Of a stretch of DNA of 64,000 bases, positions 2,858 through 56,800 are shown piece after piece. Positions within the stretch are counted from its first letter, which is position 1, and every line of letters begins with the position of its first letter. This DNA comes from Amoebophrya sp. A120 (Eukaryota; Protista; Dinoflagellata), in NCBI GenBank assembly GCA_905178155.1, contig CAJINV010000012.1, forward strand, positions 988,004 to 1,052,003. Direction: 5' to 3'. The notes under the pieces were generated by a model. It ran no database searches. It was not told the DNA's origin and was given only the letters and a program-made list of their open reading frames with translations. The translations under genes were made by a program, and so were the position numbers.

Positions 2858-5800
2858 TCACTTCTCGCCGCAATTGCACCCCCCGCCTTGTTCACCAGCG
2901 TCCTTCGGGGGCGGGGCCACCGCGGCGTTCTCGTCCGGCGGAACTGCGGGCCGTGCCGCCAGCGCCTGTTCTCCCTGTCCCTGCCCTGGGCCGCCGGCAT
3001 TGGCGTTCGGCTGTCAATATGCGTGCGTCAAATGAAGAGGACGGGCGCACTACAAGTTTGTTTCACATCCGGAACAGCTTGCGCTTGGGGAGTCGTCGTA
3101 TTACGAACACCAACACGACCATATATTTCATCTAGTCCCCGGGATGTTGAAAAAGGCTCTGCTACTGCGAACAGCATCAAGTAGGCAGATACACACTTCT
3201 CGAGAAGCGAGAATGGGCAGTGTGCCTAATCGGACAGCGAAGACGTCGCAGCCATGCTGCACTGGGCAAACGCAAAACAATTTGCTCAGTAGCGCGGTTC
3301 TTCTTGTGTGCAAACAATGCTGTTCCCCCAGCCACTTTCAAATACATAAAAACTGTGATCATGATCGACATTTCACGGTGTACTGCGACTCTCCAAGATG
3401 CCTATTGTCGATGCAAAAACATAGCACAGCGCGAAGCTGTTCTGAAGATGTGAAACTCTACTTCAAACCCGACCTAAATAAAAGTAGGCGCCTTCATAGG
3501 GGTTGCGGCGGGTGGTTTGCGGCAATCCGCTGGGCTTCTTGCGGCCCAAGCACGACGGGGGCTGCCGCCGCCGCCCCGACGGCTCCTGGACGACGCGGCC
3601 GCGCATGTGCTGGCGGAACTACACCAGGAGAGGCGGTCGAAGGTACGGAAGGGGAAGTAAGTCCGCTGCTAGCTGCAGCTCCGGCTCCTCCGCCTGCCGG
3701 AGCTGCACCCGGGGATCCGCGCGCCAGAGGTGTAGTACCCGATCTTCCGTGCACGGCAGCACCTGCCGCTCCGGCTGCCGGAACAGGAGGTGGTCCAGCA
3801 ACCGCCATGGGAGGCAGGCCGGCTGCAGTCGTGGTAGTCATTCCTGGTCGTGCTGCTGGTACGACGGGGGCTGCCGCAGCCGCTGCCGCCCCGACGGCTT
3901 CTGCATCACCACGCGGCCGCGGATAAAGGGCCGGCGTAGCCGGTGATACGGGTGAAGCTAGCCCAGGAGAGGCGGTCGAAGGTACGGGAGAGGAAGCTCC
4001 AGCGGCTGCAGCTTGACTTCCAGCTCCAGCCCCTCCGCCTGCCAGAGTTGTAGTACCCAATGATCCACCGCCCCGCGCGGCCAGAGTTGTAGTACCCAAT
4101 CCGCGCGCCAGAGGTGTGGTACCCGACGACCCGCGCGCGGCAGCACCTGCCGCTCCGGCTGCCGCAACAGGAGGTGGCCCAGCAACCGCCACGGGAGGCG
4201 GGCCGGCTGGTCGAGCTGCAGGAGGCACAGCAGCTGCGGGTCTTCCGACTGGCGCTGCAAAATCGTTCCTGGGTGCCGGCGTAGTAGATGCCACTGCTGG
4301 CGCTGCGTCGCCTATCCAAGAAAAAAACTGGAACTGCGTTAGTGTATTTCTTTTGGAAATACAACAGCGGCACAAGTTCGTCTGCCATGACAGGAAAAAC
4401 TTGTTATGCACAGATAGTATGTGAGGGATGAAAACACATAGGAAGCGAGCCGATCATGCATGTCGAGCATGACAAGTATAACTGTTTTGCATTTTCCGCA
4501 TCACAGATTTACACTTAAACAGTTTTTTTCTTGCATACCGCCGGATGCAGGTCCACCCGTTCTGCTGGCTGCTTGTGTTCGTGCACCCGGCGTGCCAGGA
4601 GCGAATGATCGCGGGGTGCGGGTGGTCGCGACTGCCGATCCCGAGCCGGCCGGCGCTTGTAAAGATGGAACAGGACCGGCTGCTGGTGACCGAGAGGGAG
4701 CGGCGGGAGTCGTCGCCAGAGACCCAGCGGCGCGAGCGGCAGGTGGTGGCGGAGCCGGTAGAGCAGACCGTGGCTATGCTGTGCAAAACCGTACCCGCGA
4801 CCCGCCACATCGTCAAGTAGATCGATGGGCATTTTTTTGCTACACACATCAGGCGCTTTACTAGCAGTGTTGTCGTGTGTGCGTGGTGTGCTAGTCGCAT
4901 CTCAGACATCGATCATCATGTCGATCATGCCTGGACTCATATAATAGCATGATGCGATTTGTTTTTGTTCCAAAACTCTTAACAGAGAGAGTACAACATC
5001 AAGCATGGGCATTTAGAAATAAACACTTCTGCACTTCTCAACACACGGCTCCTGGCTGCGCATGAGAGACAATCCGGGGTGGCGGAGGTGGGAGGTACGT
5101 TTTCACACAGGATAGCGGCTGCGGCGTGCCCACGCCGACTTCGCGCAGGAAATTCTGGACCTGCTCCTTGCAGAGATCGCTTGGTTTTGTCTTCTTTTCT
5201 TGTGCTTCCACCTTGAACTGCTGCAAAGCCGCGTACGTCAGCTGCGAGACCTTCCTCCGACGTTTCGGTTTCCCCTCCGGCCCCCCAAAGACATGCACGC
5301 CTGGTAGTTTGTCCCCTTGTTTGTCTTTTGTCCACATCAACGGCTCAAATACAAACGGGTAAAGAAGCAAAAACATCTTCTCCTGCCGTTTCTTATGCAT
5401 TGCAAATATGTCTGGCGGGTCTGGAAAGATGTAAACTTCCGATGCTGATTCCACAGGCGACAAAAATGAAAATTTGTCTTGCATAGCAAGCAAAAAACGT
5501 TGCTTTATTTTGCCTCAGGAAGTACTTAGCAGTAGTTCAAGTTCTAGTTGTAGTACTAGTAATACTAGTAGTCGCCATTTGACTCCCAAATGGGCGGGCA
5601 TTGCTCATGCAGACTCGGAATAGAGCAGCTTGTCATGCTCTGTGTGCGTGATTTCGGGACCGGACCTTTTTGTTCTTTCAGGTCCAAAAAAATGCTCCAT
5701 GAAAAGTGTTTGCATTCTTCCATACCCAGACATATTTGCAGGGGGTATTTCGCTTGTGTTGCCGGCGGTAGCTGAAACGCGTCGGCCAGCCAGTTGAGGC

Positions 5801-7865: not shown

Positions 7866-9462
7866 TTATATATACACAAGAACGGGCTCTCGGGGTGGTT
7901 TTGCAAATGATATTCGAGCTGTCGGAGGCTGAACCGCTATTACTGGAAATTCATTTATGCATTGCAAAGGCATGTATCTTCGTACGTAGTCGTAATCGTA
8001 TTAGAATTAGTTACAAATTTTGTTTAAAACAAATCAATACAGAATAAACATTAAATTAGAACTTTGCATAGCTGATTTCCCATGGGAAGTGGGTTTTTCA
8101 TGCGACTACTAGTACGAGCACGATACTTTTGCACAGCATACTACTTTCCTCGCGTTGGAACGACCTGTCGTGCCCTACACAATCATCGTGACCGTCCGCG
8201 CAATCGAGACTCGACGCTGCATCCACCCCGACAGGGTCGGCTGGCGTTGCCAGGGTGGCTGCGGTATTTGTCGTCGTCTCCAACTCGAAGCCCGTCGTGT
8301 GACGTAGGTGATCATGTTGAGATAAATTCATTATCAAGTGCAAACATGTCTAGGTCATCTGCACGAAAGTTCTAATGCGAGTTCCATCTCCGTCAGAAGT
8401 GGCGGATTTCATCAATAGGTATTACCACGCCAGGGACACGAAACTTTAACTTTTTAAAGAAGGGCTGTAGCACATAGCGTGCAACGCGCTCGCGCATGAG
8501 AGATGATGGCATTTGTGCATGACAAACGGCGTTGCCATGGGAGGTGGTCAGGGTCACTCGCTCCATGCATCACATATTCTCGCTTTCCTCGAATAAATAA
8601 TAAATTGCGCAATTCACAGGTTCATTCGTATTTTTTGTTCAGATCCAGACACATTTGCACACCATATGACTCATACTTTCGCTGAAGCCGCCGCCGATCC
8701 CCATTTTCTGTTTGACACAGTCCTCCTGACCGGCGCAAAATCCCAAGTGGGACAGCACGCCACCGCTTCCTAGCAGAAGAAATGAGAGTGAACACAGAAT
8801 CGCGACAGTTGTTATAATGATCACGAGTAAAAACAAACACACACCGCTCTGTGAGCAGGCGGACCGGCGCTTCATTGCTCCTACGCGACTTTTGGTGGTG
8901 CTGCTGCTCGATGAATAGAAGGCAGCAGCGGGTGGTTTGTCATCATCTGCTGGACGTCGTGCATCCAGATCATCGCATGATCTTGAAGTAGATCTTGTCT
9001 CAGCTGCGCTGCTGGGGTCAAGATCTTCACGATGATGCTGGCCTTCCGCTACTGGCAGCACATCAACATGGTCGATTTGCAGCGCAGCTGCATCTTCACC
9101 CGACCCTAGGAGGAGTTGAAGTTCACTTTCACATTCACAGCATTCTTATGCATTGCAAAACTATCGCACAGCTAGTACTACGAAATGCTTTTTTACAAAT
9201 CTTGGCAAGAACAGAAGTGGAATTTTGAATTTTGATTCAGGTTGCTGGCAAAGATGATATTTGTTGCGCGGCATGACTGCAATTTTAAGAATAAGAAATT
9301 TTACTTTTATATCTATGAGTGCGATACTTTTGCACAGGGTAACAACTCTGCTTCGCCTTCGTCGACAACCAATACTTGCTGCAACACACCAACATCAAGG
9401 ACCTCCTCGACGGAATCTTCCATGGTGATATCCTCGTCCCTCGTGGCGGTTACTACTTTCAT
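7866..9462 (-). CDS. Hypothetical single-pass membrane protein; 4 exons
   Basis: MKVVTATRDED... joins ORFs 8639-9061 and 8098-8343 in frame on removing three elements plus 5 nt; TM segment LFLLVIIITTVAILCSLSFLLLG; frame of last exon less certain. Confidence 0.6.
7956..8140. mobile_element. Introner, family B, degenerate
   Basis: tatgcattgcaaaggcatgtatc ... cgatacttttgcacagcata; DR decayed. Confidence 0.75.
8332..8666. mobile_element. Introner, family A, degenerate
   Basis: tatcaagtgcaaacatgtctagg ... tccagacacatttgcacaccata; DR decayed but +5 removal keeps frame. Confidence 0.75.
9147..9341. mobile_element. Introner, family B, degenerate
   Basis: tatgcattgcaaaactatcgcac ... gtgcgatacttttgcacagggta; +5 removal keeps frame. 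Confidence 0.75.
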
Positions 9463-21917: not shown

Positions 21918-22178
21918 TATCAACTGTAAAAATGTCTGGGTCTGGAAGAATGCAAGAATTTGTCATGCTTGTCTGGCATGACTCTGAACTCTGTGTTGCA
22001 TGGCCGCGAAGAACTTCTCCTCCCTGTCAAGCAAAAGCAAAAACGCAGTTTCCCATGCGGAGTGCGCAACTCAGGGCCATGGAAAAAACTTGTCATGCTT
22101 GGCAGCGCATTATAGTGAGTTCACTATTCCCTTTCTTGCATCACAAGTTTCCAGACCCAGACATTTTTACATTTGATA
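21918..22178. mobile_element. Introner-type element, family A, host transcript unclear
   Basis: tatcaactgtaaaaatgtctgggtctggaa ... ttccagacccagacatttttacatttgata; perfect DR tgttc. Confidence 0.95.
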
Positions 22179-22917: not shown

Positions 22918-25900
22918 TTACACGTTGATCGACCCTCCTCCGCCGCTTTCCGGCCCTACACCCCCTCCCGCGGGCAGCAACGGCACATACCCATCTGCTC
23001 GACTGCTTCTCGTTTCCGCCGTGACAGGGCCTCCACCTGGGCCGCTGCTACCCGAGGCAACCATCATTGCCCCGTCCCCCGTTGCAACAGTCGAGCCATT
23101 CGGCATTACCTGGTCCCCACTCTTCTTTTCATTTTCCTCGCCATTCCCGCCGAACAGTACACCCCCAGCACCGGAGTACAACCCGCGCAAATGCGACTTC
23201 CGCATCTCTTCGATGGCCAAAATCGGCAGAAACACGATCACAAAGGGCAACAGCAACTGCGGCAGTCCCAGTTTCCAGGTGCCGAGCAATTTCTGAAGCG
23301 GGGACCAGTAGACCACGGCCAGCCCGGTGAGATATGAATTGCAAAAGCATTGCATCGTACTAGAACTAGTATAAATTGCATTACAAACTGGCCCAGCATT
23401 ACAAATTGAATTTGTAATGCTGATTTGCCTTGAGAAAGAGATTTGTAATGCATAAATGCAATTAGTACGAGTACGATACTTTTGCACAGGATATGAGAAT
23501 CTCGAACACGATGAAGAAGTTGAGCCAGAAATTCGGTATCCCATGTAAAAACGTCCCCACACCATAGTCAAGATGGGAAATCTGCAACACAAATCTTCAC
23601 GTTTTGGGAGTTCTGCATGACAAGTTTCCATCTGCAGTGTAGTCCTGGCTAGCAAGGAAAGCCGCATGAGAAAGCCGTTTTCTCATCCTGTGTACAGCAT
23701 TACAAATGCCAAAACACAACTGGAAATGCCTCTCATGGAGATGCGCATTACAAGTGTTCCTGTCATTGCACAGGTGCATGACAACTATGGGGTGGGGATG
23801 TTTTTACACAGGATATTCGGGATCCCGTACTCAAACAGCGACTGACGGTAGGTGGTAGAGGCATACGCCGCGGCGAGTTGGCCGACCAGGAGGGACCAAT
23901 AGTAGCAGGTGGTCATTTCGCCGTAGATCTGATGTTGAGCAGGGGTATTGAGATTTATTTCGAGCAGTGCACGACTAGCATAGGCTGCTCATGTTCTGTT
24001 TTCAATGTTGCGCGTTTCAACATCATGAAACTGAAATCCGTCGAGCACACACACACACAGAGTAAGAGTTTGGCTCCAACACTGATGACACCAACACTTT
24101 TATCTATACCCGAAACTCATCGTCCGTGTATTCCTTGTAGCTTTTTCCGCTCAGGAACAAATCCTGGCTCTCCGGGAAAAACACCGTGATCATCAAGAAA
24201 CACCCTAACGATATGAACTGCAAAAGCATCGTACTAGTAGATATCGCATTACAAATTTGCTCAGCATTAGAAATGGAATTTGTAATGCGGTTTTACTTTG
24301 ATAGAAAGATTTGTAATCCATGACTGCAATTACTACGAGTACAATACTTTTGCACAGGATAAACGACTGCAGCGCCCCGATGTACGCGTAGGAGTAGGCC
24401 AACAAATCGTTATCCACCAACGGCTCCCGTTATAACAGTGCACAACTCCCCCTCGTTCTCATTTCTCATGCAAAATCCACAATTCCAGTTGCTCCCTTGC
24501 GTCACTATCATGCATGACAAATTCCGCAGGCCCAAACAGTACTACTGCGCTGGGCACTGAAATTTGCCATGCATAGGCTCCACGTGTGCTGGTGTTTGTA
24601 TTGCAAACAATTGCTGTTCATGCAATACAAATGAGGGGGAGGGGGGGTTCGGGTTGTGCACTTTCATACCCGTCTCGGGTGTCGCGGCTTCCGGTTCATC
24701 AGATTCGACTCCGCCGGCTGCGTTGCGTAGGCGATGGAGGTCCAAATGTCCGTCCCGATGTCGATGGTCAAAATTTGCGTGATCGTGAGGGTCTGCGGTA
24801 AACTGAAAATCCCGAGGAAAATCGGTAACGACTGCGGGAGTTTGGAGCACAGCGTGTACATGATGGACTTGCGCAAGTTGTCGGACGATAACCGGCCCTG
24901 CTCGACCCCGTCGACGATGGAGGAAAAATTGTCGTCCAACAGAATAATGCCCGCCGCGTCCTTCGCCACCTCCGTCCCCCGGATGCCCATGGCAATCCCC
25001 ACCTCCGCCTGCTTCAGCGCCGGCGCGTCGTTCACCCCGTCGCCCGTCATCGCGACGATAGAGTGGGCGAAAGTTTGGTACGCTTGCACGATGATCTGCT
25101 TGTGGAGGGGCGACACCCGGGCGAAAACGCAGCAGTACTGACACGCGTTGACCCAGAATTCCTTCACGGCCTGCGGATCGTGCTCCCCAAACTCGTCGTA
25201 GGTCGGTGCGTATTGCTCCACGAGCTTTCCCTCTATCACCTCGAAATCCTGCTGAATCTGCGACGTTGCCGTGGTGGCCGGAAGGGCCTGCAGGATGCCC
25301 AATTTCCTCGCAATCGCCCGGGCCGTGTCCATGTGGTCTCCCGTGACCATCACCACCTTCACACTCGCATACTGCGCGCGGCGCACCGCGTTTTTCACCC
25401 CTGGCTTCGGCGGGTCCTCGATCCCATACAACCCGGACAGCACAAAATCGTCGACCAACAGCGACCGCATGTCCTCCAATCGCTCCGCCTTGGCCAGCAG
25501 TTTCTCGTATTTTGTCACGAAATTCAACTGCATTTCCTTCGTGTCAAGTGCAAAAATGTCTGGGTCTGGAAAAGTGAAGACTTGTCATGCAGATTTTCCA
25601 TGACCCGTGAGGTCTGGAATGCGGGACTTAGCATGACAGACTCTGCGAGGTCTCCGCCATGCCTGTCCTGCATGAGAAATTCCCTTTCAACTTGGTCAAA
25701 AGTGGACGGCTTTTGGCACTCACGCAACACAGATTTTTGCATGCTTCAGATTTACCATGACAAGCTGCAATCTTCCAGACCCAGACATTTTTGCAATCCA
25801 TACTTCGTGTCCGCGAACGAAAATTTTTTCATCCCCACCGCGATCACCCGCTTCCCCTCCGACATCAGCGCTCGCCACTCCGACTCGATTTGCAGCTGCT

Positions 25901-31461: not shown

Positions 31462-32739
31462 CAATATCGTATTCGTACGCAAACCGTACTACAAACCACG
31501 TCGAACGGAAAAAATCTGTATCTCGAGTCAGTCGGGCGAGCAGTTCAACATCACTTCTCTCATATTTCTTTTTCGAACTCGAATACACGACGAAGCCACC
31601 AAATGCAAGAAGAAATACATCCTAGAATATTCATTATTGAAGGTCCTTCATCGAAGATGTGTGCGGTAGCGGTACAAAAGTAAAGAAACAATCTATCTTT
31701 CGAAGGAGGTCGTTCTTCCAGACGATGGCTTCTCATTTGTAGCGCTCTAAACTTCACTCGCTCTTTTATCAACGCCAGTGGCATCACGATTGTTGATAAC
31801 GCGATTTTTTTGACAAGACTGCTCATGACGAATACGAATTTGGTACCCTGAATGATTTTAGCAGAACCAGTAGAACAACGCAAAATATTGATTCCAGCGA
31901 AGAATGCAGCAGGCCAACTTGAGTTGTAACGATCTTTTCGAGGACCGCGGTGCAATCTGATTTGGGAAAGAAGCAAGAGTCTGAAGGAGCCGGGAGGAGA
32001 AAGACAAACAACATTTCTTAGCCGAGTCTGAGAATCATGGGGTGTTCCGCAGGGTGGTAAGTAGTTCATCATCTCCTGAAGGATTTCTGAGTTAGAAATC
32101 TATCAGGTCGCTTGTTGCGTTGCCTACACTTCCACTTGTTGCGAAAGTTACAAATACAAGATGAGGGAAATTATGGCCTTGGAAATGATGTGAATGTGAA
32201 ATGTTAAAAAGAGCTCGGAAGGACAACAAAAAATGCAGACTCAGATTGTTTTTGTTTTGTCTGTTATTGTTTGTTTACTTTAATGCGATGAGGCGTTTAA
32301 TGGCACTTCTAGTCCTACTCGCTATCAAAGTGGAACCTCCTCACAACTGTCGTGCTGCACTAAAAAAGTGCCGGATTTGATAATTCGTTGGTCTTGTAAA
32401 GCCGGAGCTGTGAACTGCGAGAATTAGTATGCTTAGCCTGTCGCATTGGGTTGAAGAGAAGAAAGCGAAGCGAAAATAGACAGTGCACTTTTTTTTTAGG
32501 CAGTGGTTGACATTGTAAAAACAAAAAGAAAAACTTTGTACTTTACTTACTTTGATTTTGATTGGCAGTCATGTTCTGGCTGAATAAAAAGGAAAAATGT
32601 AATGCTGTGTAATCGTGAAAAAACGATTGATAATTTGGTACAGTAACACACATGTGCCTGTTACTTGATAGCATTGGTACTCCGGCGAGAAAAGTTTGCG
32701 CTGGATATCTATCATGCACATGCACGATCCGCCGCAAAT

Positions 32740-35700: not shown

Positions 35701-38161
35701 TGGCAATCTTCCAGACCCAGACATTTTTGCAGTTGATACAGCATTTGGAAGGACAGAATCAGCTCATCAAACGCCACGGGTGAGGTCAAAGAATAGTGCG
35801 CAGCCCGCCCGGTGAGGGCGTGGTCCCCGTGGCAGTCCCGCTTCTCTTTTTCTTCGGAGTTAGGCAGATACAATACCGCCTGCCCCGCCGGGCGCCAGGT
35901 GGTGGCGTGAAAAAAGTCAATGTCCGCTTGTTCCTCTTGGATGTGTTTCCACATTTCGTCTTGGTAGGCTTGCAATGCAGAGGAAGAATCGTCGCTCGGG
36001 GGGGGATTTTGCTGTTTGTACCGCATCAGCAGCGCAATCTGCTCGGCCAGCACGGTGACGACCCGGCCAGGCGTGTTCAGCCGCGGCACTGCGTCGTCGT
36101 TGGCCACCGTGCCCAGGAAGGTCGCGAAGGGGAAGGTCGGCAAGGAGTCCACCACGCTCGGGAGGGCGTGCGGGTAGCCCCAGATCGTCACGTCAGCGCC
36201 GAATTGGTGTTGACCACTTGCCTTTTCCGCCTGCTCCGTATGCAAGAAAAAAAGTGTGTAAGTGTAACTCTGTCATGCAGAACATGCAACAGAATTACAC
36301 CTGTCATGCCAGGCAACCATGCAGTCCTCTTTTCACTTGTGTTTTCCCTCGTTACAAACCACGCATGACCATGAGAGGAGGTTTTCTCTGTCATGCAGAG
36401 CAAATTTGTGATGCTGTTCCTCCAAGAAAGTTACACTTTTTACACACTTTTTTTCCTGGATACTCCGTCCACAGGCTGTAAACCCAGGAGGCGGTCGCCG
36501 CGCCCAGCGAGTGGCCGGTAATGATCAGGTCCTTGTAGGTGCCCGCATGAGCAGCATCTGCAAAAAAATCCGTGATCGCTTGCTCCGTTTCCGCCGCCGT
36601 GTCTTTCGCCGCCAAATAAATTGCGGGGTGCGCGTTGTGCCCGTCCAGTTGCTCTTTCGTTTGTAGAGATCCCTCGTCAAAGTAGCTCGCCATTTCCTCG
36701 GACACGGTCTTGTAGCGGAGATCCGTGATGGCGTCGTCAATGGCTTTGGTCCCGCGAATCGCCAGCACCACAGCCTTCCGCTGCTTGTCGCCGAAGAGAA
36801 CATAGGCCGGCATTTTCACATCGGCCTCATACCGGGCTTTCAGGATGTCGATCCACTCCGCTTTCGTCGCGTCGAAACCCTCACCGAACGCCCAGCGGTC
36901 CTGTAAAACCGTAATAGAACTAAGTACTTTGGACCTAAGCAAAAACCCTGTTCCCTGCTGTCGAGCGGCGCATCATCCTCGAATTTAGGTAGAAAGTACT
37001 ATTTCTGTGCGTGCGCAGTGATACGCATAATGAAGTTGTAAACAGCGCAACATCGAGCAAACAGCGCCCAAAACAACAAGGTGTCAACATCTACCTCACC
37101 CGTACGAACGGCCGACAACATAGGTGAGTATGAAATCACAAGCCATCATTTTGCGCGAAAGTCTCACAACTCGTGGTGTCAAGAATATTTTACATAAAAC
37201 AAATTCGTTTCATTTACAAATCCTAGACCTAGTACAACTAGTTTATCTTTACCTTGCTCAGAGCGAGCTTGGAACCCGCCTCCGCATTCTCCTGGAGTTT
37301 CTTGCGGAACTCCTCCTCCGACCCTTTGTAACACGCGTCTGCGTAGGCGATGCTGCGGTAGAGGTCCTTTTTCCGGTCCAGCGTCAGCGTTTCCACCGTC
37401 TCCTCTACTCCCGCATTTGTAATGTTCGCGGACGGCAACGTGTTTTCGTACAGCCGGCACTGGAGCTTGCGGTACTCAAAAAAAGCGCCGGGGAGTTTCA
37501 CCGCGTTCAGCCCAAATTCCTTGACCAACAACAGACTCGCCTCGGCAAAGCCGGCCATTTCCCCGGCAATGTCGTACATCTGCTTCATTTCGTCCGTCAA
37601 CCCCAGGTCGTCCATCGCCGGCAGTAACACCGCGGCGGCAAATTCGTTTGCTTCCTCGCGCATTTCGCCCAGCGTAGACTCCGCCATTTTTTCCAGCTCT
37701 TGAACCTTCGCGTGAAACTTCTCCTTCGATTCGGTGAGCTTATCCACCGCGGGATCGTAGATGTAATTCGCCCATTTCTCCTTGAAAGCACTCCAGGCAG
37801 CGGCAGTTTTGTTCTTCATTTCGGCCATCCTGGCGTTCATTTCGTCAACCGTTTCGGAGTCAACGCAAAAAGAGGTGGGCAGTTCCTCTGTAGTGGTCCT
37901 GTGGTCGTCCAGCTGGAGGAGCTCGTCCTGCTCCGTGGGAGGAGTCCTGGATGCAGCTACGTTGTCGTTCTTCTGGTCGTTCTCACGCACCACTTCCACA
38001 TGCCTTTGTTTCTTCTTCGCCTGCCCGACGGCGGTGACTGAAATGGCGGACACGAAGATCGTGGTCTGCTCTATCGCGGCGCCGAGGAGGGCAATTGTGG
38101 CCAAAAGCCTCTTTGCGGAAGCGGGGGCTTTCGAGCGAGGATCCATTGTTCGTCCACCCAT
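32740..38161 (-). CDS. Class-3 lipase (diacylglycerol-lipase-like); 4 introner introns + GT-AG intron 36901-37252
   Basis: VVLAIRGT, LIITGHSLGAATA (GxSxG), NDDAVPRL, ELILSFQML|PAHKTSNY (putative catalytic His); N-terminal hydrophobic segment. Confidence 0.88.
32940..33190. mobile_element. Introner, family A
   Basis: Family A TIRs, right one with small insertion; DR tccca/tccaa. Confidence 0.88.
33299..33560. mobile_element. Introner, family A (close relative of 25542-25802)
   Basis: Perfect DR gacag; shared core ttttccatgacccgtgaggtctggaatgc. Confidence 0.95.
33652..35738. mobile_element. Introner, family A, expanded to 2.1 kb by a nested insertion
   Basis: tatggattgcaaaagtgtctgggtctggaagattgc ... 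gcaatcttccagacccagacatttttgcagttgata; perfect DR cagca; in-frame join QML|PAH. Confidence 0.92.
33704..35520 (-). mobile_element. Nested ~1.8-kb insertion with poly(T) end, possibly retroposed
   Basis: atgctgtc(t) duplicated at 33696-33703 and 35521-35528; T13 tract at left end; no recognisable RT or transposase ORF. Confidence 0.55.
36239..36462. mobile_element. Introner, family E
   Basis: tatgcaagaaaaaaagtgtgtaa ... ttacacactttttttcctggata; perfect DR ctccg. Confidence 0.95.
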
Positions 38162-38991: not shown

Positions 38992-41900
38992 TCACGCCGA
39001 AGATGGCCTTTTCCACGCGAAGTATCCCCGGTCGGTATCGCGACTGCTGCGGTTCCCATCGAACGCATAGGCGATCATCATGCGCGCCCAGAAGTGTCGC
39101 CCCAGGTCTATGGCGGAGTTCTCAACCGTTACACTCTCAACTGTTACAGGAGTCTGCAATGCAAGCACAGCAACAGTCAAAGGGGCAAGCTTGCTGCTTT
39201 CGCATGACAGATAATTTGGCACAGATTTATACGCTGTCTAGCCCTTCGGAAATTTGTCATCATGCGAAGCAGCTTGATTATCTTTATCCGGCGGTTTAAA
39301 CAAGTAGTTTATTTTGCACGACAAAAAATCTATGCAGCAGTTGAATGAGAGTGTAACCACGTTTGAGAACCCGTCCATAAGGTCCCGTCCGCTGTTCCAG
39401 TATAGCCGGTCTTGGCTGCCCGCCACGAGCCACTGATTCGTGTCGATGGTGTTCGGTCCCGTGAAAAAGTAGGCATTTGGCTTCAATACACAGAAGATCA
39501 AGGACGCGGTCTGCACATCCGCGAAGGGATTGAGCTGGTCGCCGTACCGCCCGAGCCCCGCATGTTCCAGGGAGGAGTAGGTGAACGCGAGATCGAACAG
39601 TTCGTGAAAAGCTGCATCTTCCTGATCCTGTTGATCTTGATCTGGTGGCTCAGCATGATTTGCTCTTATTTCCTCATCATCGCTTTCTCCATGTAGTTCC
39701 TTTCGTTGAAAAAACCCGAACTTTTTTCCCAGGTCCAAGAAGTGCAGAAACCGGAGTTTCGGGTTTCGACTGCAAAAATGTCTGGGTCTGGAAACTTGTG
39801 ACGCTAAAATGTGGATAATGGAAACACATCCGAATGCAGTCCAGCATGACAACTATCCAGGACGCTTTCTCATAGGTAGTCCGCATGAGAAACTGCGTTC
39901 TTCTTCTTGCATGACAAAGCTGGCTGCGACTTTTGCTGGTTATGCAACACAGATATCCCAGGAATGTAAAGCAAGCATTACATGTTCCAACCTTCCAGAC
40001 CCAGGCATATTTGCAATTCATATCGGGTGGCGGCGAACGACTTTCGGCTCGCGGTAGTCCACGGTGGTGACCTTTCTGGCGTTCATGCTATGCTATGTAA
40101 ATTTCCCGTACATGTACAAAATGCATGACAAATTTCGCTAACTTGCAGTGTCCAACTTGTCATGCTAGACTAGGATTGAAGGCAAGTTTTGTCATGCAGA
40201 GACTGCATTTGTTTTTGTACGTGTACCGGAAATTTACTGTGAATACATGCGGAGCAGGAACACCTCGATCCAGGGAATTTCGGACCCCAACACCAGGACG
40301 TGCTTGTCTTCGATCAGGTCTCTGTGCTTTTGGAAAAAATCGCGATGGAGTGCCGTGTATCAAATGCAAATATGTCTGGGTCTGGAAACTTGTAATGCTA
40401 AAAGTGAATGATAGACCTAGACGCACTGCAATACGCAGCTATGCATGACAAATTTTCTGGCTGCAATGTCTTACGTATTCCGCATGGCAAACTGCGTTTT
40501 TGCATGACAGGTAAGAGGGCCCTTTCGTGCCTATGCAACACAGATTCTCGAGTCATGCCAGACAAGCATGACAAACTTGCATTCTTCCAGACCCAGACAT
40601 TTTTGCATTTGATACCGTGTCTCCGTAGCTCGTGTAGATGCCAGTTTCCACGTCTTCTGCCCTCACGCTCACTTCCTTTTCGATGTGTTCCCTCTCCCAG
40701 CGAAAGTCATGCCGCTCGTTCCAACCCTTTTCGAATGATTTTTGCAATATCATACGGAAATAATGCGAGAACATATTCACATAAAAATCTCTTTTGCATA
40801 ATGCATATCACAAACAGCATGTTCATGGCTTTTCGCCAATGGCAGAGTTTGTCGTTGTTCCCTCTTAACCAATAATTTTGAATTCACTTTTGCATTGCAT
40901 ATGTGAAGATGACATGCTAGCTTTTTTCTACTGTATGATATGCGCGAAATAGACCGGCGGTGTGTGGATGACGGCGCGGCCGTTGATGGTGTACTCCTTT
41001 TCAAACACGAGAGGCACAAAGTCCACCGGTGGCCACAAAATGGGGGAAAAATCCAGCACGCCGGGGGACCTCGCCAGGGCCGGGCAATTGGGCCGGACCG
41101 TGCTCAACTTCTGCGCAAACACCAGGTCCGCAACTTCCGGCTCGGGAAGGGAGTGCTGGACGTTGTTGAAAGGGTGCAGCTTATTGGAGACAGATGGTTC
41201 AAGTTCATCTCCCTCGTTAGCAGGAGGAGTTGCTTCCACCTCAAGTAGGCTGGCAAGGGTGGTTGTGAGCTCCTCTGATGTCCTGGGTGTTGACATGATA
41301 GGTGTAGTACCAGCAGGACTACCCTCCTCCCCATACCGGATGGAGACCAAGTGTTGCATGCTGTCAATCCGTCTCGCGTTCTCCTCGACAATGCCATCGT
41401 TGCAGACGTCCTCTGTGTGTGCAATGCAAAGGTATCGCACTTCGCACCGCTACAACTAGTACGTTTGCGTAGTACCCGACTGCGGCCATCCTGCATGCCA
41501 GATCTCTACTTTATTCCGAAGCATTCCAATAATTCCACTTTTCAATTCGAGATGATTTGATCTTGATGGTGCATTTTTTCATTTATAGCTACAGTAAGTG
41601 CGATACTTTAATACTTCTGATGCATACTTCGCACCCTGTAGTCAAGTGCGGCTTCAATCTTGTGTAAAACAGATCCGCAACCTTCTGCATGAACAGCGTC
41701 GTGCGGTGCATCGCCTGCTTGAAAAACTGCGCCAACTGCTGGAGCTGAAGGTCGGTGGAGAGCAGCAGCTCGTCCCGCTTTTCGCGGAGGGAAACAAGAT
41801 CTTCTACTGTAAGAGCACCTTGTTGTAGTTCCGCAGTCCTGCTGCTCGTGAGATTCGAAAAAGTTTGTTCTCCATGATCTGAGAGAGATTTTTCTGCGTT

Positions 41901-44437
41901 GACGATCTGCCGGTTCACTTTTTCCAGTTCCACCACGCTCTTCCGGTGCTGCTTCCCGTACAGGTCAAAGAACTCCAAATACAGGTGTGTTTCCGGAATT
42001 CCGGCCGCAAGACCGCCGATCGGCTCGAGAAGCATCAGTTCCTTGTCCATCGTAGTGGACAGGTCTTGCTTGGTTAGCAGCTTCAATACCTTTTTCTTCC
42101 TGTTGTGTGTAGAAGAAGCAGTGCCTTTTACTACTATTTCTGCTTCTAGCTCTTCCGCGAGATGATGCAAGCCGCCTCCTTCTTCTGCCCGGTCGTCATC
42201 CACTTCGAGAAAGATATCCTGTGCAAAAACGTCTCCACCACAGGTTTGTCATGCAAATGCGCAATGATAGGAACATTTGTATTGCGCAGTTCCATCAGAG
42301 GCATTTCCAGTCGTGTTTTGGAACTTGTGGTGCTGCAAACAGGATGAGAGAGAAAGTGTCTTTCTTATACGGCTTCCCTTGCCAACCAGCACTACACTCC
42401 AGAGGAAAACTCGTCATGCACAGCTCCCAAAACTTGCAGATTTGTCTTTGTGTTGCTAGATTCCCAACTTGACTCCTGGGTGCGGACGTTTTTGCAGAGG
42501 ATAAAGGATCCGCTTGATTTTCTCGTACCAGACCCCCACTTGAGAGTGAAAGTCGCTTTTCAAGTGGAAAAAGGTTTGAGGATTATCTTTTTCAATACCA
42601 GTGGTCGACGAGGACGACACATCTACACCTTCTAGCTTCAGCAACTCCTCCTGCTTCGCGACGAGCGTCTGCCCGACGAAGAGCGCCGCGTTGGACAGGT
42701 AGTCGGAAACTTTGTGGCAAAAAAATCGCGCCAAGAGCCACAAGTTCCTGCGAGGGTTGCTGACGTGGTTTGATGAGGAAAACGGAAAATGATGTTGTTG
42801 TTGGGCATCTTCAACATCTGTTTTTGCTTGTTCTAGCCGCGCCTTGGAGCTGCCTCCAGCACCATCTTCTGCTCCTATAGAAGCGGACGAGGACGGTACC
42901 ACGAAGGTACTAGAGTTGTTACTCGTTCTCGTTCCGTCGCCTGATGTGGTGCTATCCGACATAAAAACGTCAATCGGAATGGCGTATGGATTGCAAATAT
43001 GTCTGGGTCTGGAATATTGTAATGCTAAAAGTGAATGATAGACGCACTGCAATACGCAGCTATGCATGGCAAATTTTTTTGGCTGCCATGTCTATCTTAC
43101 GTATTACGCATGGCAAACTGCGTTTTTGCATGACAGGTAAGAGGGCCTTTTCGTGCCTATGCAACACAGATTCTCGAGTCATGTCAGACAAGCATGACAA
43201 ACTTGCATTCTTCCAGACCCAGTCACTTTTGCACTTGATATGGGGTTCACCCCGTTCAAGTTCTTCCGATCTGCTTCGGCCAAACAGCCCCGAAATATGG
43301 CGTTCTCAACTGTTACATGGATTTGTGATGCAAGAATGGCAAAAGTCAAAGCAGGGAGGTTGCACCTGTAGCATTACAAATTCCGCACAGATTTAGGTGC
43401 TGTTTAGCCTTTCCAAAAGTTGTCATGCGAAGTAGCTTCACCTTGTGGTTGTGAGCTGAGTGTTGATGTTCGTTTTGCATTACAAAACACGCAACAGCTG
43501 AGAATGTAACAGTTGAGAACGCCATACGAAACCGCATCTTGCTGTGGACTTCGGACAGCTGTAGTAGATGGAGACAGTAGGTCATCGCACGAGGACAAAA
43601 GTGTTATTTCACTGTAAGGATCTTCGCAAAATTTTGATTTTTGCATCACAAATTTGCTCTACATGAACGAAGAAAAAAAAAAAAAGCGACGGTCCTAAGG
43701 GAAAAGAAACTACACGCCTGAAATCATTCACTGTCTTGCATGTGATCTTGCAGGACAAACACTTCACTTCTGTGTCAGGTTCTCTGCATGACAAGTTTAA
43801 TACTACAGTGAAACAGCTTTTTCGTGCGATATAGGTCGCGGACTCCCCGGTGCAGGACAGTTGCTGCTTTTTTTCCCATATGAACTGCAAAAGTGTAGTT
43901 GTACTCGAATGCAATTTGTCATGCGGATTTACCTGTACGAAAAAGATTTGTAGTGTGCATGACTGCAATAATTAGTACTACAAGTACGTCGATACTTTTG
44001 CAATGCGTATCCCAGTCTTTGGATTGATAGCAGCACACCTCCGCGGAGGGATACCGGGAATCCCAGCACTCGGCGTTCCCCGTCTCCCCGTAGACCTCGT
44101 GACAGCAGTCTTCATGCCGCGCATCTACGCGGTCGAAGCACAGTTTCCTTCCCCGGTAAAAGATCACCGACTCCTGCTCTCGGGGCGGTAGGGAGGGGAA
44201 GACGGTCCCTGTCGCGGCGTTTTGGCACAACGTAGTTCTGTAAACAAGTACTAAACTGACGCCGACCACGCGGCACGACAAGCGCACGGCGACACTGCGT
44301 GACGTCGAGGAGCACTTGTTTTTGTTTATTCTTGCGGCCCGCCCGCTTAGGAGACGACCGATCGCGTGCACGGTGTCGTGCCTGGTGTTCCAGCGCTCCT
44401 TCCGCGACCACAAGCTCTTCGCCACCTCGTCCGCCAT
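38992..44437 (-). CDS. Protein with C-terminal DUF268-like (SAM-methyltransferase-fold) domain and N-terminal Cys-rich region; 11 introner introns
   Basis: HVLVLGSEIPWIEVFLLRM|NARKVTTVDY and FDLAFTYSSLEHAGLGRYGDQLNPFAD...CVLKP resemble DUF268 motifs; all 11 junctions stay in frame with element +5 removal. Confidence 0.8.
39109..39379. mobile_element. Introner, family D
   Basis: Family D TIRs; perfect DR aggtc. Confidence 0.93.
39764..40022. mobile_element. Introner, family A (left end TTT)
   Basis: Family A TIRs; perfect DR tcggg. Confidence 0.92.
40089..40245. mobile_element. Introner, family I
   Basis: tatgctatgtaaatttcccgtacatgtacaaaa ... ttttgtacgtgtaccggaaatttactgtgaata; perfect DR catgc. 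Confidence 0.93.
40358..40614. mobile_element. Introner, family A (young subfamily)
   Basis: Perfect DR ccgtg; near-identical to 42985-43240 and 49631-49887. Confidence 0.95.
40748..40940. mobile_element. Introner, family J (short TIR)
   Basis: tatcatac ... gtatgata; DR tgcaa/tgcgc; in-frame join FAQ|KSF. Confidence 0.8.
41418..41626. mobile_element. Introner, family B, degenerate
   Basis: tgtgcaatgcaaaggtatcgcact ... agtgcgatacttta...tgcata; in-frame join GCE|EDV. Confidence 0.75.
42215..42503. mobile_element. Introner, family C
   Basis: Family C TIRs; DR aaaga/aagga. Confidence 0.9.
42985..43240. mobile_element. Introner, family A (young subfamily)
   Basis: Family A TIRs; DR tggcg/tgggg. 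Confidence 0.93.
43296..43526. mobile_element. Introner, family D
   Basis: tatggcgttctcaactgttacat ... atgtaacagttgagaacgccata; perfect DR cgaaa. Confidence 0.95.
43583..43831. mobile_element. Introner, family E-like (left end CAT)
   Basis: catcgcacga...tttcactgta ... tacagtgaaa...tcgtgcgata; perfect DR taggt. Confidence 0.88.
43879..44009. mobile_element. Introner, family B
   Basis: tatgaactgcaaaagt ... acttttgcaatgcgta; perfect DR tccca. Confidence 0.92.
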
Positions 44438-48576: not shown

Positions 48577-51500
48577 TCATCTCGATAGCGGATTCAGCCT
48601 GGATTTCATGGCTTCCCAACCCCCTTTCATCAATGCTTTGTGAATCGCCTCGTCCCGCAAAGTGTCCCTCAATAACTGCCGGAAATTGTCGTTGATCTTT
48701 TCATCCTGCCAAATGTCCAGTGCAAAAGCATCGCACTCGTAGTAATTCTCGCAGTCATGCATCACAAATCTGGTTATCACGGTAAATCCGCATTACAAAT
48801 CGAATTTGTTGTAATGTTGCTGAGCCAATTTGTATTGCAAGCTGTACTAGTACGATACTTATTTTTGCAATGCATACCGTATTTCCTTAATCAGTTGCTT
48901 CACCTCTTCAAACGATCCTGCCAACGCTATCATATGTAAAAACGTCCCCACCCAGAGCTGTCTTCATGCAAATGTACAATGACAGGAACATTTGTAATGC
49001 GCTTCTCCATGAGAGGCACTTCCATTCGTGTTTTTGCATTTGTAATGCTTTAAACAGCATGAGAGAGTGGCTTTCTAATGCGGCTTTCCTTGCTAGCCAG
49101 AACTACACTGCAGATCGAAACTTCTCATGCAGAACTCCCGAAACTTCGGGATTTGTGTTGCAGACTTCCCATCTTGACCATGCTGTGGGGACGTTTTACC
49201 ATAGGATAAATGCTGCCGCCGCGAAATCCCCGTCGCCAAGTAAGTTTAAAACGTACGTGAAAAACTCGTCGAGCACAATACTGGACTGCTTGTTCTGTGG
49301 GTCTTGCGCAGCTAATGTTTGAGATATGCACTGCAAAAGTATCGCACTCGTACTAATCGCACTCATGCAATACAAATTTTTTTCTCAAACCAAATCCGCA
49401 TCACAAATTTCATTTCTCATGGAGCAAATTTGTCATGCGATTTATACTGTCTATACTAGAAGTACGACGCCTTTGCATTGCATATGAGAAGTTGTACCAC
49501 TACCATCCGGATTTCTTTCCCCCGCGATCGGTGTGACCGCCGGCGTGGTCGCCGATGCACGCAGGTTGAAACCCTGCCGCAAACCCTCCACGATCGCGAT
49601 TACCATCCCGCGGGACATCTTGCTGCGCATTATCAACTGTAAAAATGTCTGGGTCTGGAAACTTGTAATGCTGAAAGTGAAAAATGATAGACGCACTGCA
49701 ATACGCAGCGATGCATGACAAATTTTTTGGCTGCTATGTCTTACGTATTCCGCATGGCAAACTGCGTTTTTGCATGACAGGTAAGAGGTGGGCCTTTTCG
49801 TGCCTATGCAACACAGATTCTCGAGTCATGCCAGACAAGCATGACAAACTTGCATTCTTCCAGACCCAGACATTTTTACAATCCATACGCATCTCCGTAC
49901 TGTTAAATGCCTGCACGAAAACGGACGAAACCTCGCCCGCCAGTGTGAACTCCTTCGGGGGCTTTATCCCAAGGAAAAACGTCCCCAGCCGCCCTATAGC
50001 TGTCATGCAAATCTGAATCCTTAAAATGTGGCTTCTCATGCGAAGCGGCGGCCCCATAGAAGCAATTTTTAGTTCCGTTTTGGAATTTGTGATGCTCGAT
50101 TTAGCACGGCTATATGCTAGATCTGTGACGCTGCTGAACTGCTTTTGCACAGGATTACACTACGAGGCCAGCCTTCATGTCATGCGTAGCTACAACCAAA
50201 GCCGGTTGATTTGTCTCGCAGACTTTCCAGCTTCGCTTTGGGGTGGGGACATTTCTGATACACAGGATATCCTTATTGCGGTCATCATTTATCTTCCTGT
50301 CTTGCGCTTGCTGCGACGCGGAACCCGAGCCGACTGACGACGAAGATCTCAGCACTTTGTCCGCCCTTTTCGCGAACTCTTTACCTCTTTGTTCATCTTC
50401 TTCGCGTCGCGGTAGTGGAGCTGCTGTATCGTCTTTATCAGTGTCAAAGTCTTCGTAGAGAAGTTCGGTCGACGGCAAGGGGGAAAGCGCCCTCGTTCCT
50501 TGTTGCTCGTGCATGATTTTGCTCGTCGAAGCGCCGCTGCTATTCGTCTTGTACCCTGTTATCCTGTCCTTCACTGACGGACTGGCCGGGATGCTTTTGG
50601 ACCCCGGGCGCGACCACTCCTCTGCAACCTCGTCGTCATTCGCCGAGCTGTCCGAGGAGCGTGTGGGGTAGTTCTGCAGCTGGTTAGAAGTATTAGACTG
50701 GTCGGGCGGAAGATTTTCATTTTCACCGCCGGCCTGTTCATCCACCTCGTCCGCAAGTAGTGCCGCCCCAAGGCCAGACGAGGAGGAAGACGACGTGCGT
50801 AGCAAGCACTTTCCCTTCCACTCATCTGTTTCCATATACCGCAATTTCGCCTCCAGCACCACGCCGACGAAGTAATTCTTCACTCTCTTATGAACTGCAA
50901 AAGTATCGTACTCGTTGTATAATAAATGCAATACAAATTTCCTCAGCATGAGGAATAAAATTTGTAAAGCTGATCTACCTCAAGAAAAAGATTTGTAACG
51001 CATGATTGCAATACGAGTTTACGATACTTTTGCACAGGATATCTCTCTTCTATCAGCAAGTTCTCCTCCTTGCTGGGCTCTTGGATTTCGCTCCGGATCA
51101 TCCCAACTAATTCTTTGATAAACTCCTCCGTGCCAAACATGTTTGTGATTGTCGTCGCGAGTCTTCCCTCCGCCGCTTGGGGAAGAATCAAATTCCCCAC
51201 AGACCGCTGTCTTATCCTGAGTAAAAACGTCCCCACACCAGAGTTGTCATGCAGATTTGCCATGACAGGAACATTTGTGATGCGCAACCCCATAACAGGC
51301 ATTTTCAATTGTGTTCGGGAACTTGTAATGCTGTAAACAGGATCAGCAGATGGATTTGTGATGCGGCTTTCCTTGCTAACTTGCACTACCTTACGGACCG
51401 AAATTTGTCATGCGTGACTCCCAAAACTCCTAGGTTTGTGTTGCAAAGTCCCCATCTTGACTCTGGTGTGGGGACGTTTTTAATCAGGATATGTCTGTCC

Positions 51501-52397: not shown

Positions 52398-52416
52398 GAT
52401 TGTGGACCTGCTTGTA

Positions 52417-52679
52417 TATCAAATGCAAAAGTGTCTGGGTCTGGTTAGAATGCAACTTGTGATGCTGCGTTTGGATTCCAAAAAAATCTGTACTGCATGA
52501 GCAGCAAAGGGAATGCGATTTGTGCTACGCGGGGAGTGCATTTGTCATGCGGAGTAGACATCAAGATGCCCTTAAAACGTCTGCGATGCTACGGCATGCA
52601 TCACAGACGTCATGGCTCACGCAAAACGTGCATCACAAGTCTCAGAATCTTCCAGACCCAGACACTTTTGCAATTCATA
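52417..52679. mobile_element. Introner-type element, family A, probably in 5' UTR
   Basis: Family A TIRs; 4-bp DR tgta; ~20 nt upstream of ATG 52397. Confidence 0.9.
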
Positions 52680-53839: not shown

Positions 53840-56800
53840 CTACTCTAGCACATCCGGCACCTTCCCTGATTTCCCCATCTTTTGCTCTGCTTTCTTGGGC
53901 GGGAGCTCGAGGCTTTCTTCCATGGATTTCTTGAAATCAAAATCCTCCTCCTCTTCCTCGCCTATTTCCACTTCCACGGACTGAAAATCCTCCCCAACCC
54001 CGATCTGCTGCCCCGACATCTGTATCCCGCCGGACTTGTCTCCCGTGTCTTGCGACTCGAGCTGCTGGGAATAGGCCATCTGCACCGATCGCTCGCTCGG
54101 ACGCCAGAGGTACATGATGACGGTGAGGAGGAAAGCGAAGCAAACGTGGGACAAAACGTCGGTGAAAATGTACCTTTTAACATTAAAGAAGGTTATTTTC
54201 GATTTGTCCTGCGGCTCCTCAACAAGAACGGCTAAGTATAAATACGGGGAGAATGATTTTTACTCTTCTCGTGCCCTCCCCGTGGAGGAACACTGAAAGA
54301 CTACCTAAGACATTCGTAGTCAGCTCCACACAACACAAAGACAAACTTATTCGCTTCTATTTCTAGTACAGTAAGTCGGCTGTACCTGGTCCGCCAATTC
54401 TGCGCCAATTCCGTCCGCCTGACCACAATTGTCTCGTACCCAACGAGCGCCATCGCGATGCCGACCACCAGCACCAGTGCGAGCCGCAGATTTTGGTACA
54501 CTTCTGCCTTCACCATCTGCCGACTGTTTATGCATTGCAAAAATGTCTGGGTCTGGAAGAATGCAGGACTTGTCATGCTTGTTTGGCATGACTCTTAGAT
54601 CTGTGATGCGTAAGCAGGACCGGGGCCTCTTGCCTGTCATCTTTCTTCTTCTTCTTGGAAACTGTCATGCTATGGCTGCGTATAGTATTGCGCCCACTAA
54701 GTATTCACAGACTTGCATCACAAGTTTCCAGACCCAGACATATTTGCAGTTGATACTGTTGTTCAGATACCCAATCGTTTCCTGCAAGGCGTGCAGAATC
54801 CACACGTAGATCAGGGAGACGAAAAAGGAACCCGGTGTCTATGCATTGCAAAAACATGGTCTGGGTCTGGAAGACGAGTCCAAGGCTTGTCATGCTAGTC
54901 TGGCAGGGCACTGAGCTCTGTATTGCGCGGCCACGAAGAGCTCCGCTTTTCTGTCATGCAAAAATAACTCAGTTTCTCATGCGAAATACGCAACACAAAG
55001 CTGCGGAAAAGTCTGTCATGCTTGGCGGTGCACTACAGTCGTGTTCTTACTATTCACTGAGACGCATCACAAGTTTCCAGAACCAGACATATTTGCATGG
55101 GGTAGGGTCACGAGTAAAATGATTTTCCACGTATCCTGCACTCCGACAACTCTGTTATCCTGTGCAAAAGTATCGCACTCGTAGTTGTAATCGCAGTCAT
55201 GCATTACAAATCTCTTTCTTAAACCTAAATCCGCATTACATATTTCGTTTCTCATGCTGAGAGAATTTGTCATGCGATTTCTACTTAGTGCGATGCTTTT
55301 GCCATTTATATCTGTCCTGCATCAACAGTGCCATCTGCCGGATCCCGTCGGCGAAAATGAATGCACCGACTAGAAGGAGGACCTGGGTCAAGGTTTAATT
55401 TATTTCCTTTCTCTCATTATACAGCTGAAATGTCACTCTATACAAATCTGCTCTGATGCAGGGTTGATGTACCGGAGCACTTCCTGCACTTTATTCAAAG
55501 TGGTATCTTCCTAATCCTATATGGCCGAAAGATTGGTTATGCATCACAAACAGTATATATACCTTTGCCGTGATTTTGCCGTCCAATCTTGGCGCCGTTA
55601 CTCCCAATCCCAAGCAGGCCAGTAACAAAACCCCGTAGCTCAGCCCCTGTTTGGTCACTGTTCCAAAGGAGGCGAGGGCCATCATGGACCACCATCGGTG
55701 ACCAAGGTAATTCCAGTGGAAGAGCGAGATGTACCTGATAAAATTTGTTGCGTTTTCACGAGGAGAGAAGCTTGTTCTCCACACCATGCATGAAGCGATT
55801 GCACGAACGCAAAAGAAGAAATTAATTTGTCCATGCATTTTTACGATTGTTCGAAATCAAAAGTCACTGTTTTCATGCAAACAACTGTCTCAAAAAACCA
55901 GTTTATTACCAGCACGCCGCTTCTATCAGACCGGCGATAATGGCCACGGTGATGAAGTGGTGAATTTTGAAGAGCACATCCGACCACTTGTGGCACCAGA
56001 CGCCCTTATGCACTGCAAAAGTATCGCACTTGTACTACAAGTGCGATACGAAGGGCGAAATGCGGATTTACCTTTAGAAATGAATTTGTAATGCATGATT
56101 GCAATCACTACAAGTTGTAGTGATTGCAATCATGCATTACAAATTCATTTCTAAAGGTAAATCCGCATTACAAATTTGGTTTCTCATGCTGAGGGAGTTT
56201 GTCATGCATTTATACGAGTACGATACTTTTGCAGTTCATAGCCCCAGACGACCAGCAACCCAAGGTAGAGGAACATCAGGTAGAGGTTATCCCGTGTAAA
56301 AATGTCCCCACCCCATGGTCATCAAGCTGGGAATTCTGCTAGACAAATCGACAAGCCTTGGCTGTTGCGCATGACAAGTTTGGGCCCGCAAGGTGCTAGT
56401 CGTGTTTAGCTAGCGCAGCAGCTACTTCACAGATCGGGCACATTATGCTGATTGGAGCATCACAAAACTCAAAACACCACTAGAAAATGCTTCTCATGGG
56501 TCTCCGCATGAGAAACATTTTGAACATGCAGATTTGCATTACAACTCTGGTGGAAAGAGACGTTTTTACACGGGATAGAGGTAGAAACTCAGTTTCGGCA
56601 GTTCCTCCCCGGGCAGATACCCCTTCGACGATATCGTCGAAAGTTCCCCGGAAACAAAAGCCGGCATGGTACTCCCATCCTTCTCGTTGCAGTTAGTCTG
56701 CAAAATATAGTACAGCCCCCCGGTGGGCGGTTTGAAGACGGTAAAATCTCGCTGATAGGTCTATAACCCGCTCAGGTGTTACAATCTCAAACGCTGCAAT

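Follow-up and report, generated by a model that had tools for sequence, protein, structure and literature searches.

The 64,000 nucleotides (nt) of Amoebophrya sp. A120 analysed here (contig CAJINV010000012.1, positions 988,004 to 1,052,003 of the forward strand; hereafter the window, numbered from its first letter) are crowded with elements that begin with TAT and end with ATA, and they pose the question of why the two ends of a symmetric element should decay differently according to the direction in which the host gene is transcribed. The elements themselves have already been published as introners of A120 and hence are not new; Farhat 2021 (PMC7789003; here and below, the literature is cited from those passages of each paper that were available) describes inverted repeats of TAT plus seven looser bases plus AAA in introners of ~240 nt. 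An earlier note on the sequence of the window had listed nine terminal variants and proposed selection at the RNA level on the 5' end. We find that the asymmetry is real and is replicated in an independent set in a narrower form, in which the first T alone is protected. Our preferred explanation, to which we assign a probability of roughly 0.7, is that these are transposon-derived introns of the A120 type, cut one base before and four bases after the element (-1/+4), that this register is likely general, and that the first end in the transcript is likely a relaxed donor, N-U-A-Y, whose U at intron position +2 is under selection.

The window holds 62 paired TAT...ATA elements of 109-2087 bp (median 251; 17.9 kb in total) between 529 and 63767. 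They were gathered by profile scans that ignored the terminal three bases and by manual reading; families D and E and the singletons were spotted by eye via their TAT ends, so that ascertainment in the window is partly triplet-dependent. A looser fuzzy scan and a family-blind scan for terminal inverted repeats (TIRs) were too noisy and were used as leads only. The elements are:

Elements 1-10: 529-797, 901-1206, 4313-4537, 4775-5114, 5394-5747, 7956-8140, 8332-8666, 9147-9341, 11468-11622, 12483-12696
Elements 11-20: 13973-14236, 18834-19156, 21918-22178, 23333-23493, 23537-23815, 24212-24361, 24431-24668, 25542-25802, 25908-26164, 26429-26664
Elements 21-30: 27217-27396, 27475-27753, 27820-28085, 28253-28397, 28472-28733, 30103-30293, 32940-33190, 33299-33560, 33652-35738, 36239-36462
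Elements 31-40: 39109-39379, 39764-40022, 40089-40245, 40358-40614, 40748-40940, 41418-41626, 42215-42503, 42985-43240, 43296-43526, 43583-43831
Elements 41-50: 43879-44009, 47572-47807, 48714-48876, 48928-49208, 49325-49484, 49631-49887, 49965-50269, 50889-51041, 51213-51491, 51559-51717
Elements 51-62: 51748-51999, 52146-52254, 52417-52679, 54529-54755, 54840-55104, 55156-55310, 56007-56240, 56288-56577, 56762-57031, 57071-58760, 61845-62081, 63524-63767

Taken in minus-strand orientation, the transcript-5' ends comprise 58 TAT and 4 TAC, and the transcript-3' ends 57 ATA, 3 ACA, 1 AAA and 1 ATG. All nine variants that had been claimed are where they were placed, with no others beside them, and within the window those at the 5' end indeed affect only base 3 and those at the 3' end only bases 1 and 2. 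Each is given below with its target site duplication (TSD) or its RNA evidence:

5394..5747, minus strand: introner, 5' end TAC; TSD CGAAA/AGAAA; within an 833-amino-acid (aa) spliced minus frame
9147..9341, minus strand: introner, 5' end TAC; TSD degenerate (1/5); within a 299-aa spliced minus frame
25542..25802, minus strand: introner in a P-type ATPase gene, 3' end ACA; TSD CGAAG perfect; exon-length sum from RNA contig fits element plus 5
39764..40022, minus strand: introner, 3' end AAA; TSD CCCGA perfect; exon-length sum of 296 equals that observed
41418..41626, minus strand: introner, 3' end ACA; RNA skips 41413-41626; 5' cut within -2..0
43583..43831, minus strand: introner, 3' end ATG; TSD ACCTA perfect; exon-length sum of 140 equals that observed
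43879..44009, minus strand: introner, 5' end TAC; TSD TGGGA perfect; exon-length sum fits
48714..48876, minus strand: introner, 3' end ACA; TSD TACGG/TTTGG; RNA-contig pieces stop at 48708 in runs X1 and X3
54840..55104, minus strand: spliced introner, 5' end TAC; 5' cut at -1 or 0

Taken alone, the window gives p = 0.008 for the 2x2 table of variant type by end, a post hoc test; TA is broken at 0 of the 5' ends and 5 of the 3' ends (two-sided p = 0.057), and the total numbers of variants are 4 and 5. An independent outside set was assembled with a search pattern lacking the terminal bases, which returned at least 178 stretches at 163 loci and gave 152 non-redundant segments (541,655 bp) from one accession series. 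These segments share with the window only the elements (77-89% identity among the best BLAST matches). Profiles blind to the triplets yielded 342 pairs, 301 of which remained after re-pairing at a TSD match of at least 4/5 and 299 after removal of two duplicates; inner repeats of family D, which gave false ends, were filtered out. A codon model applied to the spliced flanks oriented 251 of the 299; tried leave-one-out on the window, the same model made 54 calls at this threshold, all of them correct, and gave no call for 8 elements. The orientation of the outside variants was also examined through Pfam, which gave a single match in 102 open reading frames (ORFs), in agreement with the codon model.

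In the 251 oriented outside elements, position 1 was changed at no 5' end and at six 3' ends (p = 0.03), position 2 at two and four, and position 3 at five and two; TA was broken at 2 versus 10 ends (p = 0.039). With orientation by sign only, which covers all 299, the counts for positions 1, 2 and 3 were 0 vs 8, 2 vs 5 and 6 vs 3, and in the oriented elements pooled with the window (313) they were 0 vs 7, 2 vs 8 and 9 vs 2. The claim that the 5' end always keeps TA therefore fails in the outside set, where 2 of the 251 5' ends read TGT and TTT; the first T alone is invariant. Both exceptions, TGT after G at L023:3401-3667 (a GTG donor) and TTT at L043:5233-5477, are strongly oriented. Confinement of the 5' changes to base 3 likewise holds in the window but not outside it, and the base-3 excess there is not significant.

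How unusual is an unchanged base? At conserved positions inside the TIRs the rate of change is 1.6-3.8% per site, a figure that the search biases low. The first T of the 5' TAT is unchanged in 313 of 313 elements, for which the probability at a rate of 2% is 0.002; two changes in 313, as found for the A that follows it and likewise for the first A of the 3' ATA, have p = 0.05 at that rate, and 7-9 changes are ordinary. The 3' triplet decays at about the 2% background. Sense-strand T was never changed at intron position +2, against 9 changes at +4 and 8 within the 3' ATA (p = 0.001 in the pooled data, 0.026 in the outside set). Both insertion orientations are present (48:42, 28:24, 28:16, 12:8 and 7:8), and in families A, B and C, whose ends fit TAT plus seven looser nt plus AAA, the variable TIR positions are similar at both ends; the asymmetry thus tracks transcription and not the polarity of the element.

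The position of the protected base within the intron comes from RNA joints in contigs of runs X1 and X3 of one study, whose RNA type is the tool's guess. These contigs lack three canonical GT-AG introns, whose joints read CT..AC on the plus strand, as well as the elements, and the DNA-type run X5 retains elements (contigs 28710-32475 and 40590-42275; 0 differences). The canonical introns and the two element introns whose limits RNA fixes uniquely are:

54174..54385, minus strand: canonical GT-AG intron, donor GTACAG; RNA contig
55383-55562, minus strand: canonical GT-AG intron, donor GTATAT; RNA contig
55735-55909, minus strand: canonical GT-AG intron, donor GTAATA; RNA contig
30099..30294, minus strand: limits set without ambiguity by one RNA contig, the intron being C + element 30103-30293 + CGTT; cut -1/+4, TSD copies matching at 1/5
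49961..50270, minus strand: limits set without ambiguity by RNA contigs from two samples, the intron being A + element 49965-50269 + AAGC; cut -1/+4

Sixteen element joints were evaluated, 12 among the 15 joints listed of 24 (the other 3 being canonical) and 4 from contig pieces, and at all 16 the element plus 5 nt is removed. Identity of the two TSD copies makes the position of the cut ambiguous. At the two joints fixed uniquely, the intron is N + TAT...ATA + NNNN, which places U at +2, A at +3, Y at +4 and the 3' ATA at -7..-5. The 5' cut is less certain for the elements at 54840 (-1 or 0) and at 41418 and 42215 (-2..0), and -1 is the sole offset compatible with all 16 joints. Exon-length sums agree exactly in four of five further stretches. 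Removal of the element plus 5 nt puts 52 of the 62 elements in minus frames of at least 300 aa, and removals in the same frame also do well (element plus 2, 55/62; element plus 8, 52/62), with 13-23 for other lengths.

The following sequence of events is inferred from these observations. Insertion by a TIR transposase would leave a 5-bp duplication, and the first TAT in the transcript would supply positions +2 to +4 of a GUA-like donor with +1 left free; with TAT at both ends, U-A-Y at +2..+4 would be available in either orientation. The duplicated five bases would restore the exon exactly, four from the upstream copy and one from the downstream copy. Selection would purge alleles that lose U at +2, and the downstream ATA at -7..-5, having no donor role, would drift near the background rate. 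The acceptor would probably be placed by distance from the paired inverted repeats and not by sequence or by identity of the TSD copies, the latter because an element with a 1/5 TSD is still cut at +4. AG is not enriched at the acceptor (25 observed vs 26.3 expected), and the last four intron bases carry 0.01-0.04 bits of information. At +1, G occurs in 97 of 313 introns and C is under-represented (55/313, p = 0.002).

The earlier interpretation is partly supported: selection at the RNA level for a donor-like signal at the 5' end, together with relaxation of the 3' end, is upheld, since the first T lies at +2, is kept in 313/313 elements and faces a 3' end that decays near background. The signal itself needs redrawing: it had been given as UA(Y), but it starts one base upstream, within the TSD, and only its U is invariant. 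This U is probably the last remnant of the usual GU...AG signal; of the features of U2-type introns, U at +2 is found (313/313 under the -1/+4 register), and a fixed G at +1 and a 3' AG are not. Judged from sequence, the spliceosome is the likely catalyst because the donor matches the canonical donors of the same genes (GTAC, GTAT, GTAA). For the more specific proposal, that Amoebophrya has evolved a spliceosome that would need only U at +2 and would measure off the 3' cut from the paired transposon ends, like a ruler, at four bases beyond the hairpin and free of any sequence signal, we see the odds as even. If the ruler reading is true, any symmetric TAT...ATA insertion, in any 5-bp target and either orientation, would be a perfect intron at once.

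Several points weigh against the relaxed-donor explanation. The replication depends on 6-8 events, the outside orientation comes from a codon model that left 48 of 299 elements uncalled in a set with no RNA, and two elements with a strong orientation call have lost the A at +3. The register is unique at only two joints, both with decayed TSDs, and the remaining 14 each allow 2-8 positions; the joints come from 15 of 24 and from contigs whose RNA type was guessed. One exon-length check, 27212-29133, is off by 191 nt, a difference that probably reflects an unmapped canonical intron with a candidate GTACTT donor at 29133. Pairing of the first and last intron bases has been described as required for splicing (PMC13326754), and here their coupling is not significant (p = 0.088; G-G 1.23x, A-C 1.17x). 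U1 snRNA was not detected in A120 (Farhat 2021, PMC7789003). Finally, the uncalled element L003:1359-1507, whose right end is ATG, would break the invariance of the first T, as a 5' CAT end, were its gene to lie on the minus strand. The scores of its neighbours are plus, the frame in that orientation is membrane-like, and between it and a minus-strand ABC Walker A motif stands an element whose flanks do not match; this suggests a plus reading, though an unproven one. An element with unmatched flanks at ~1599-1795 of the same segment apparently links parts of an ABC transporter gene that lie on opposite strands. Also in this segment, at 1030, the right TAT end of a family-D element is gone and its TSD remains.

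The alternative that survives best, although we consider it unlikely, accepts the same -1/+4 cut and the requirement for U and would replace the spliceosome by a hairpin-guided protein endonuclease and ligase, by analogy with the nonconventional introns of euglenids. The missing AG, the variable +1 base, the lack of first-last bias and the undetected U1 would all suit such a route, as would the hairpin, TIR positions 8-13 pairing with their mirror in 53 of 60 minimum free energy folds. Against it, the sole invariant base coincides exactly with the canonical +2 and has an A after it, like the three canonical donors here; A25, with a different inverted repeat (TTA), likewise has T at +2; and 83 of 89 spliceosomal proteins together with U2, U4 and U6 are reported present (PMC7789003).

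Chance, that is, neutral decay at both ends seen through small numbers and a post hoc split, is improbable. The window tests are marginal, variant totals are alike at both ends, the position-3 excess was not significantly replicated (5 vs 2) and two 5' ends lose their A, all of which count in its favour; yet the position-1 result recurred in an independent set collected blind to the triplets, whether orientation was thresholded or taken by sign, and RNA independently assigns position 1 to +2.

Two further alternatives are very doubtful, to a similar degree. A sense-strand T>C bias linked to transcription would yield 5' TAC and 3' ACA with no selection, and 7 of the 9 window variants are indeed sense-strand T>C; but TIR interiors carry no strand bias (T>C 18/1978, A>G 22/1978, p = 0.63), 5' CAT should then be as frequent as TAC (observed, 0 vs 7), and the 3' changes at position 1 are A>G and A>C. 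Selection on hairpin pairing alone, with G-U wobble tolerating some transitions at one end, would explain why the wobble-forming change at pair 1 (3' ATG) is seen five times and the pair-breaking 5' CAT never, but pair-breaking changes prevail at pairs 2 (6 vs 1) and 3 (7 vs 1), and two ends read 3' ATC, a change that disrupts pair 1. Excision from DNA in the manner of the TA-bounded internal eliminated sequences (IESs) of ciliates, with TA as the excision signal, is scarcely credible despite the TA at both ends, given that the duplication is 5 bp and not TA, that leaving one TA behind (element minus 2, the frame class of plus 1) puts 13 of 62 elements in long frames against 52, and that DNA-type contigs keep the elements while contigs free of them are also free of canonical introns.

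Duplicated target sequence of 5 bp borders the elements. A perfect TSD of length 5 is found in 39 of the 62 window elements, against none at lengths 6-10 and 1-3 at lengths 2-4, and in 253 of 301 outside elements, which were selected for a match of at least 4/5. As the 5-bp TSD lies outside TAT, TA belongs to the inverted repeat and not to the target duplication. A 2-bp TA duplication (Tc1/mariner-type or IES-type) was considered and rejected on the same ground and because RNA removes the element plus 5. The elements have the features of TIR DNA transposons that are non-autonomous, or miniature inverted-repeat transposable elements (MITEs): TIRs, a TSD of fixed length, two orientations and no coding capacity, no Pfam match being found among 21 ORFs of the two long elements:

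33652..35738, minus strand: long element of 2087 bp with family-A ends; TSD CAGCA perfect; no internal Pfam match
57071..58760, minus strand: long element of 1690 bp with family-B ends; TSD ATCCT; internal 12-bp tandem repeat

One RNA contig passes from the left flank to the right flank of the second (with a loose end at 57071), so the ends function over long distances. Within the first, a further TAT end lies inside at 35488, and AAACCCT-like short repeats occur around 33840-33900. No autonomous partner with the same termini was found among long TSD-flanked pairs in the 542 kb, and comparison of the elements with viral contigs and a search of Rfam gave no match. No transposase was found, so that no superfamily can be assigned; IS3EU/GingerRoot elements share the TA..TA termini but usually have a 6-bp TSD, a length seen in 0 of 62 elements here, and Ginger2 elements are similar in their TSD of 4-5 bp (PMC10045372).

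Host genes in the window are on the minus strand, as had been proposed: the longest frame spanning a spliced-out element runs on that strand in 60 of the 62 cases, the two exceptions (23333, 23537) sitting at the end of the ATPase gene, and minus frames of 299-963 aa contain each of the nine variant elements. Pfam matches, obtained for 10 of the 28 ORFs given, all fall on that strand too (P-type ATPase, PP5, lipase 3, DUF268, GOST). One of the host genes is:

22921..31488, minus strand: P-type cation ATPase gene with more than 12 elements inside; PF00690, PF00122, PF13246, PF00702 and PF00689 in order

The elements agree with the published A120 introners in inverted-repeat anatomy, border direct repeats, repeated families, non-GT-AG splicing and co-oriented genes; direct repeats were there given as 3-5 nt, splice sites as 'variable' relative to the hairpin, and splicing as having 'no clear splicing signature' (PMC7789003). 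The 5-bp TSD, the -1/+4 register, the invariant U at +2 and the asymmetric decay go beyond that description, and no statement of them occurs in the available passages of PMC7789003, PMC12130899, PMC9860276, PMC11282704, PMC11453091 and PMC12005148, whose figures or datasets may hold part of them. In Table S4 of Farhat 2021, 9 of 9 predominant A120 site pairs begin NT and 9 of 9 A25 pairs TT (PMC7789003), although these may be affected by the placement of ambiguous joints. Removal of tens of thousands of introns with neither GT-AG nor detectable U1 was left as an open question there; the -1/+4 register and a single invariant base would turn 'no signature' into a precise rule, which would correct gene models and show which spliceosome contacts are dispensable (U at +2 kept; G at +1 and AG lost).

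Introners of Micromonas, Aureococcus, Symbiodinium and Florenciella similarly have MITE-like TIRs, one or both splice sites derived from the TSD and an unchanged mRNA length, but need targets with GT/GC and AG (PMC9860276, PMC11282704); here both cuts fall in an arbitrary TSD, AG is not enriched and either orientation works. The MITE-derived introns of Fritillaria borealis are also mass TIR/TSD introns, removed by a spliceosome relaxed as to the ends, but have dinucleotides of their own, AG-AC and AG-AT, whereas only U at +2 is fixed here (PMC11282704, PMC13326754). Euglenid nonconventional introns share hairpin-forming ends, TSD-like repeats and the lack of GT-AG; their CAG/CTG motif at +4..6/-8..-6 is absent here, and a fixed U at +2 is not described for them (PMC11282704).

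Some smaller observations concern individual elements. The ACA variant at 25542 lengthens the direct repeat to 9 bp (25793-25811 / 25537-25545) and the ATG variant at 43583 to 6 bp; copying of 3' variants from the upstream exon fits these two but fails for most outside variants and was rejected. Five TAC 5' ends (5747, 9341, 55104, L023:5506 and L121:1030) are followed by CC, which is unusual in families A and E, and may mark a subfamily, which would lower the independence of those events. Runs X8 and X9 (RNA, same species label) contain related elements at 90-95% identity and none of the exons of this locus, so a related strain carries the same families. Inner family-B-like ends at 50156 and 40901 are nested in 49965-50269 and 40748-40940, and RNA uses the outer ends. 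A decayed family-B element with no clear partner end, at 63053-63150, lies within an apparent canonical GT-AG intron of the PP5 gene.

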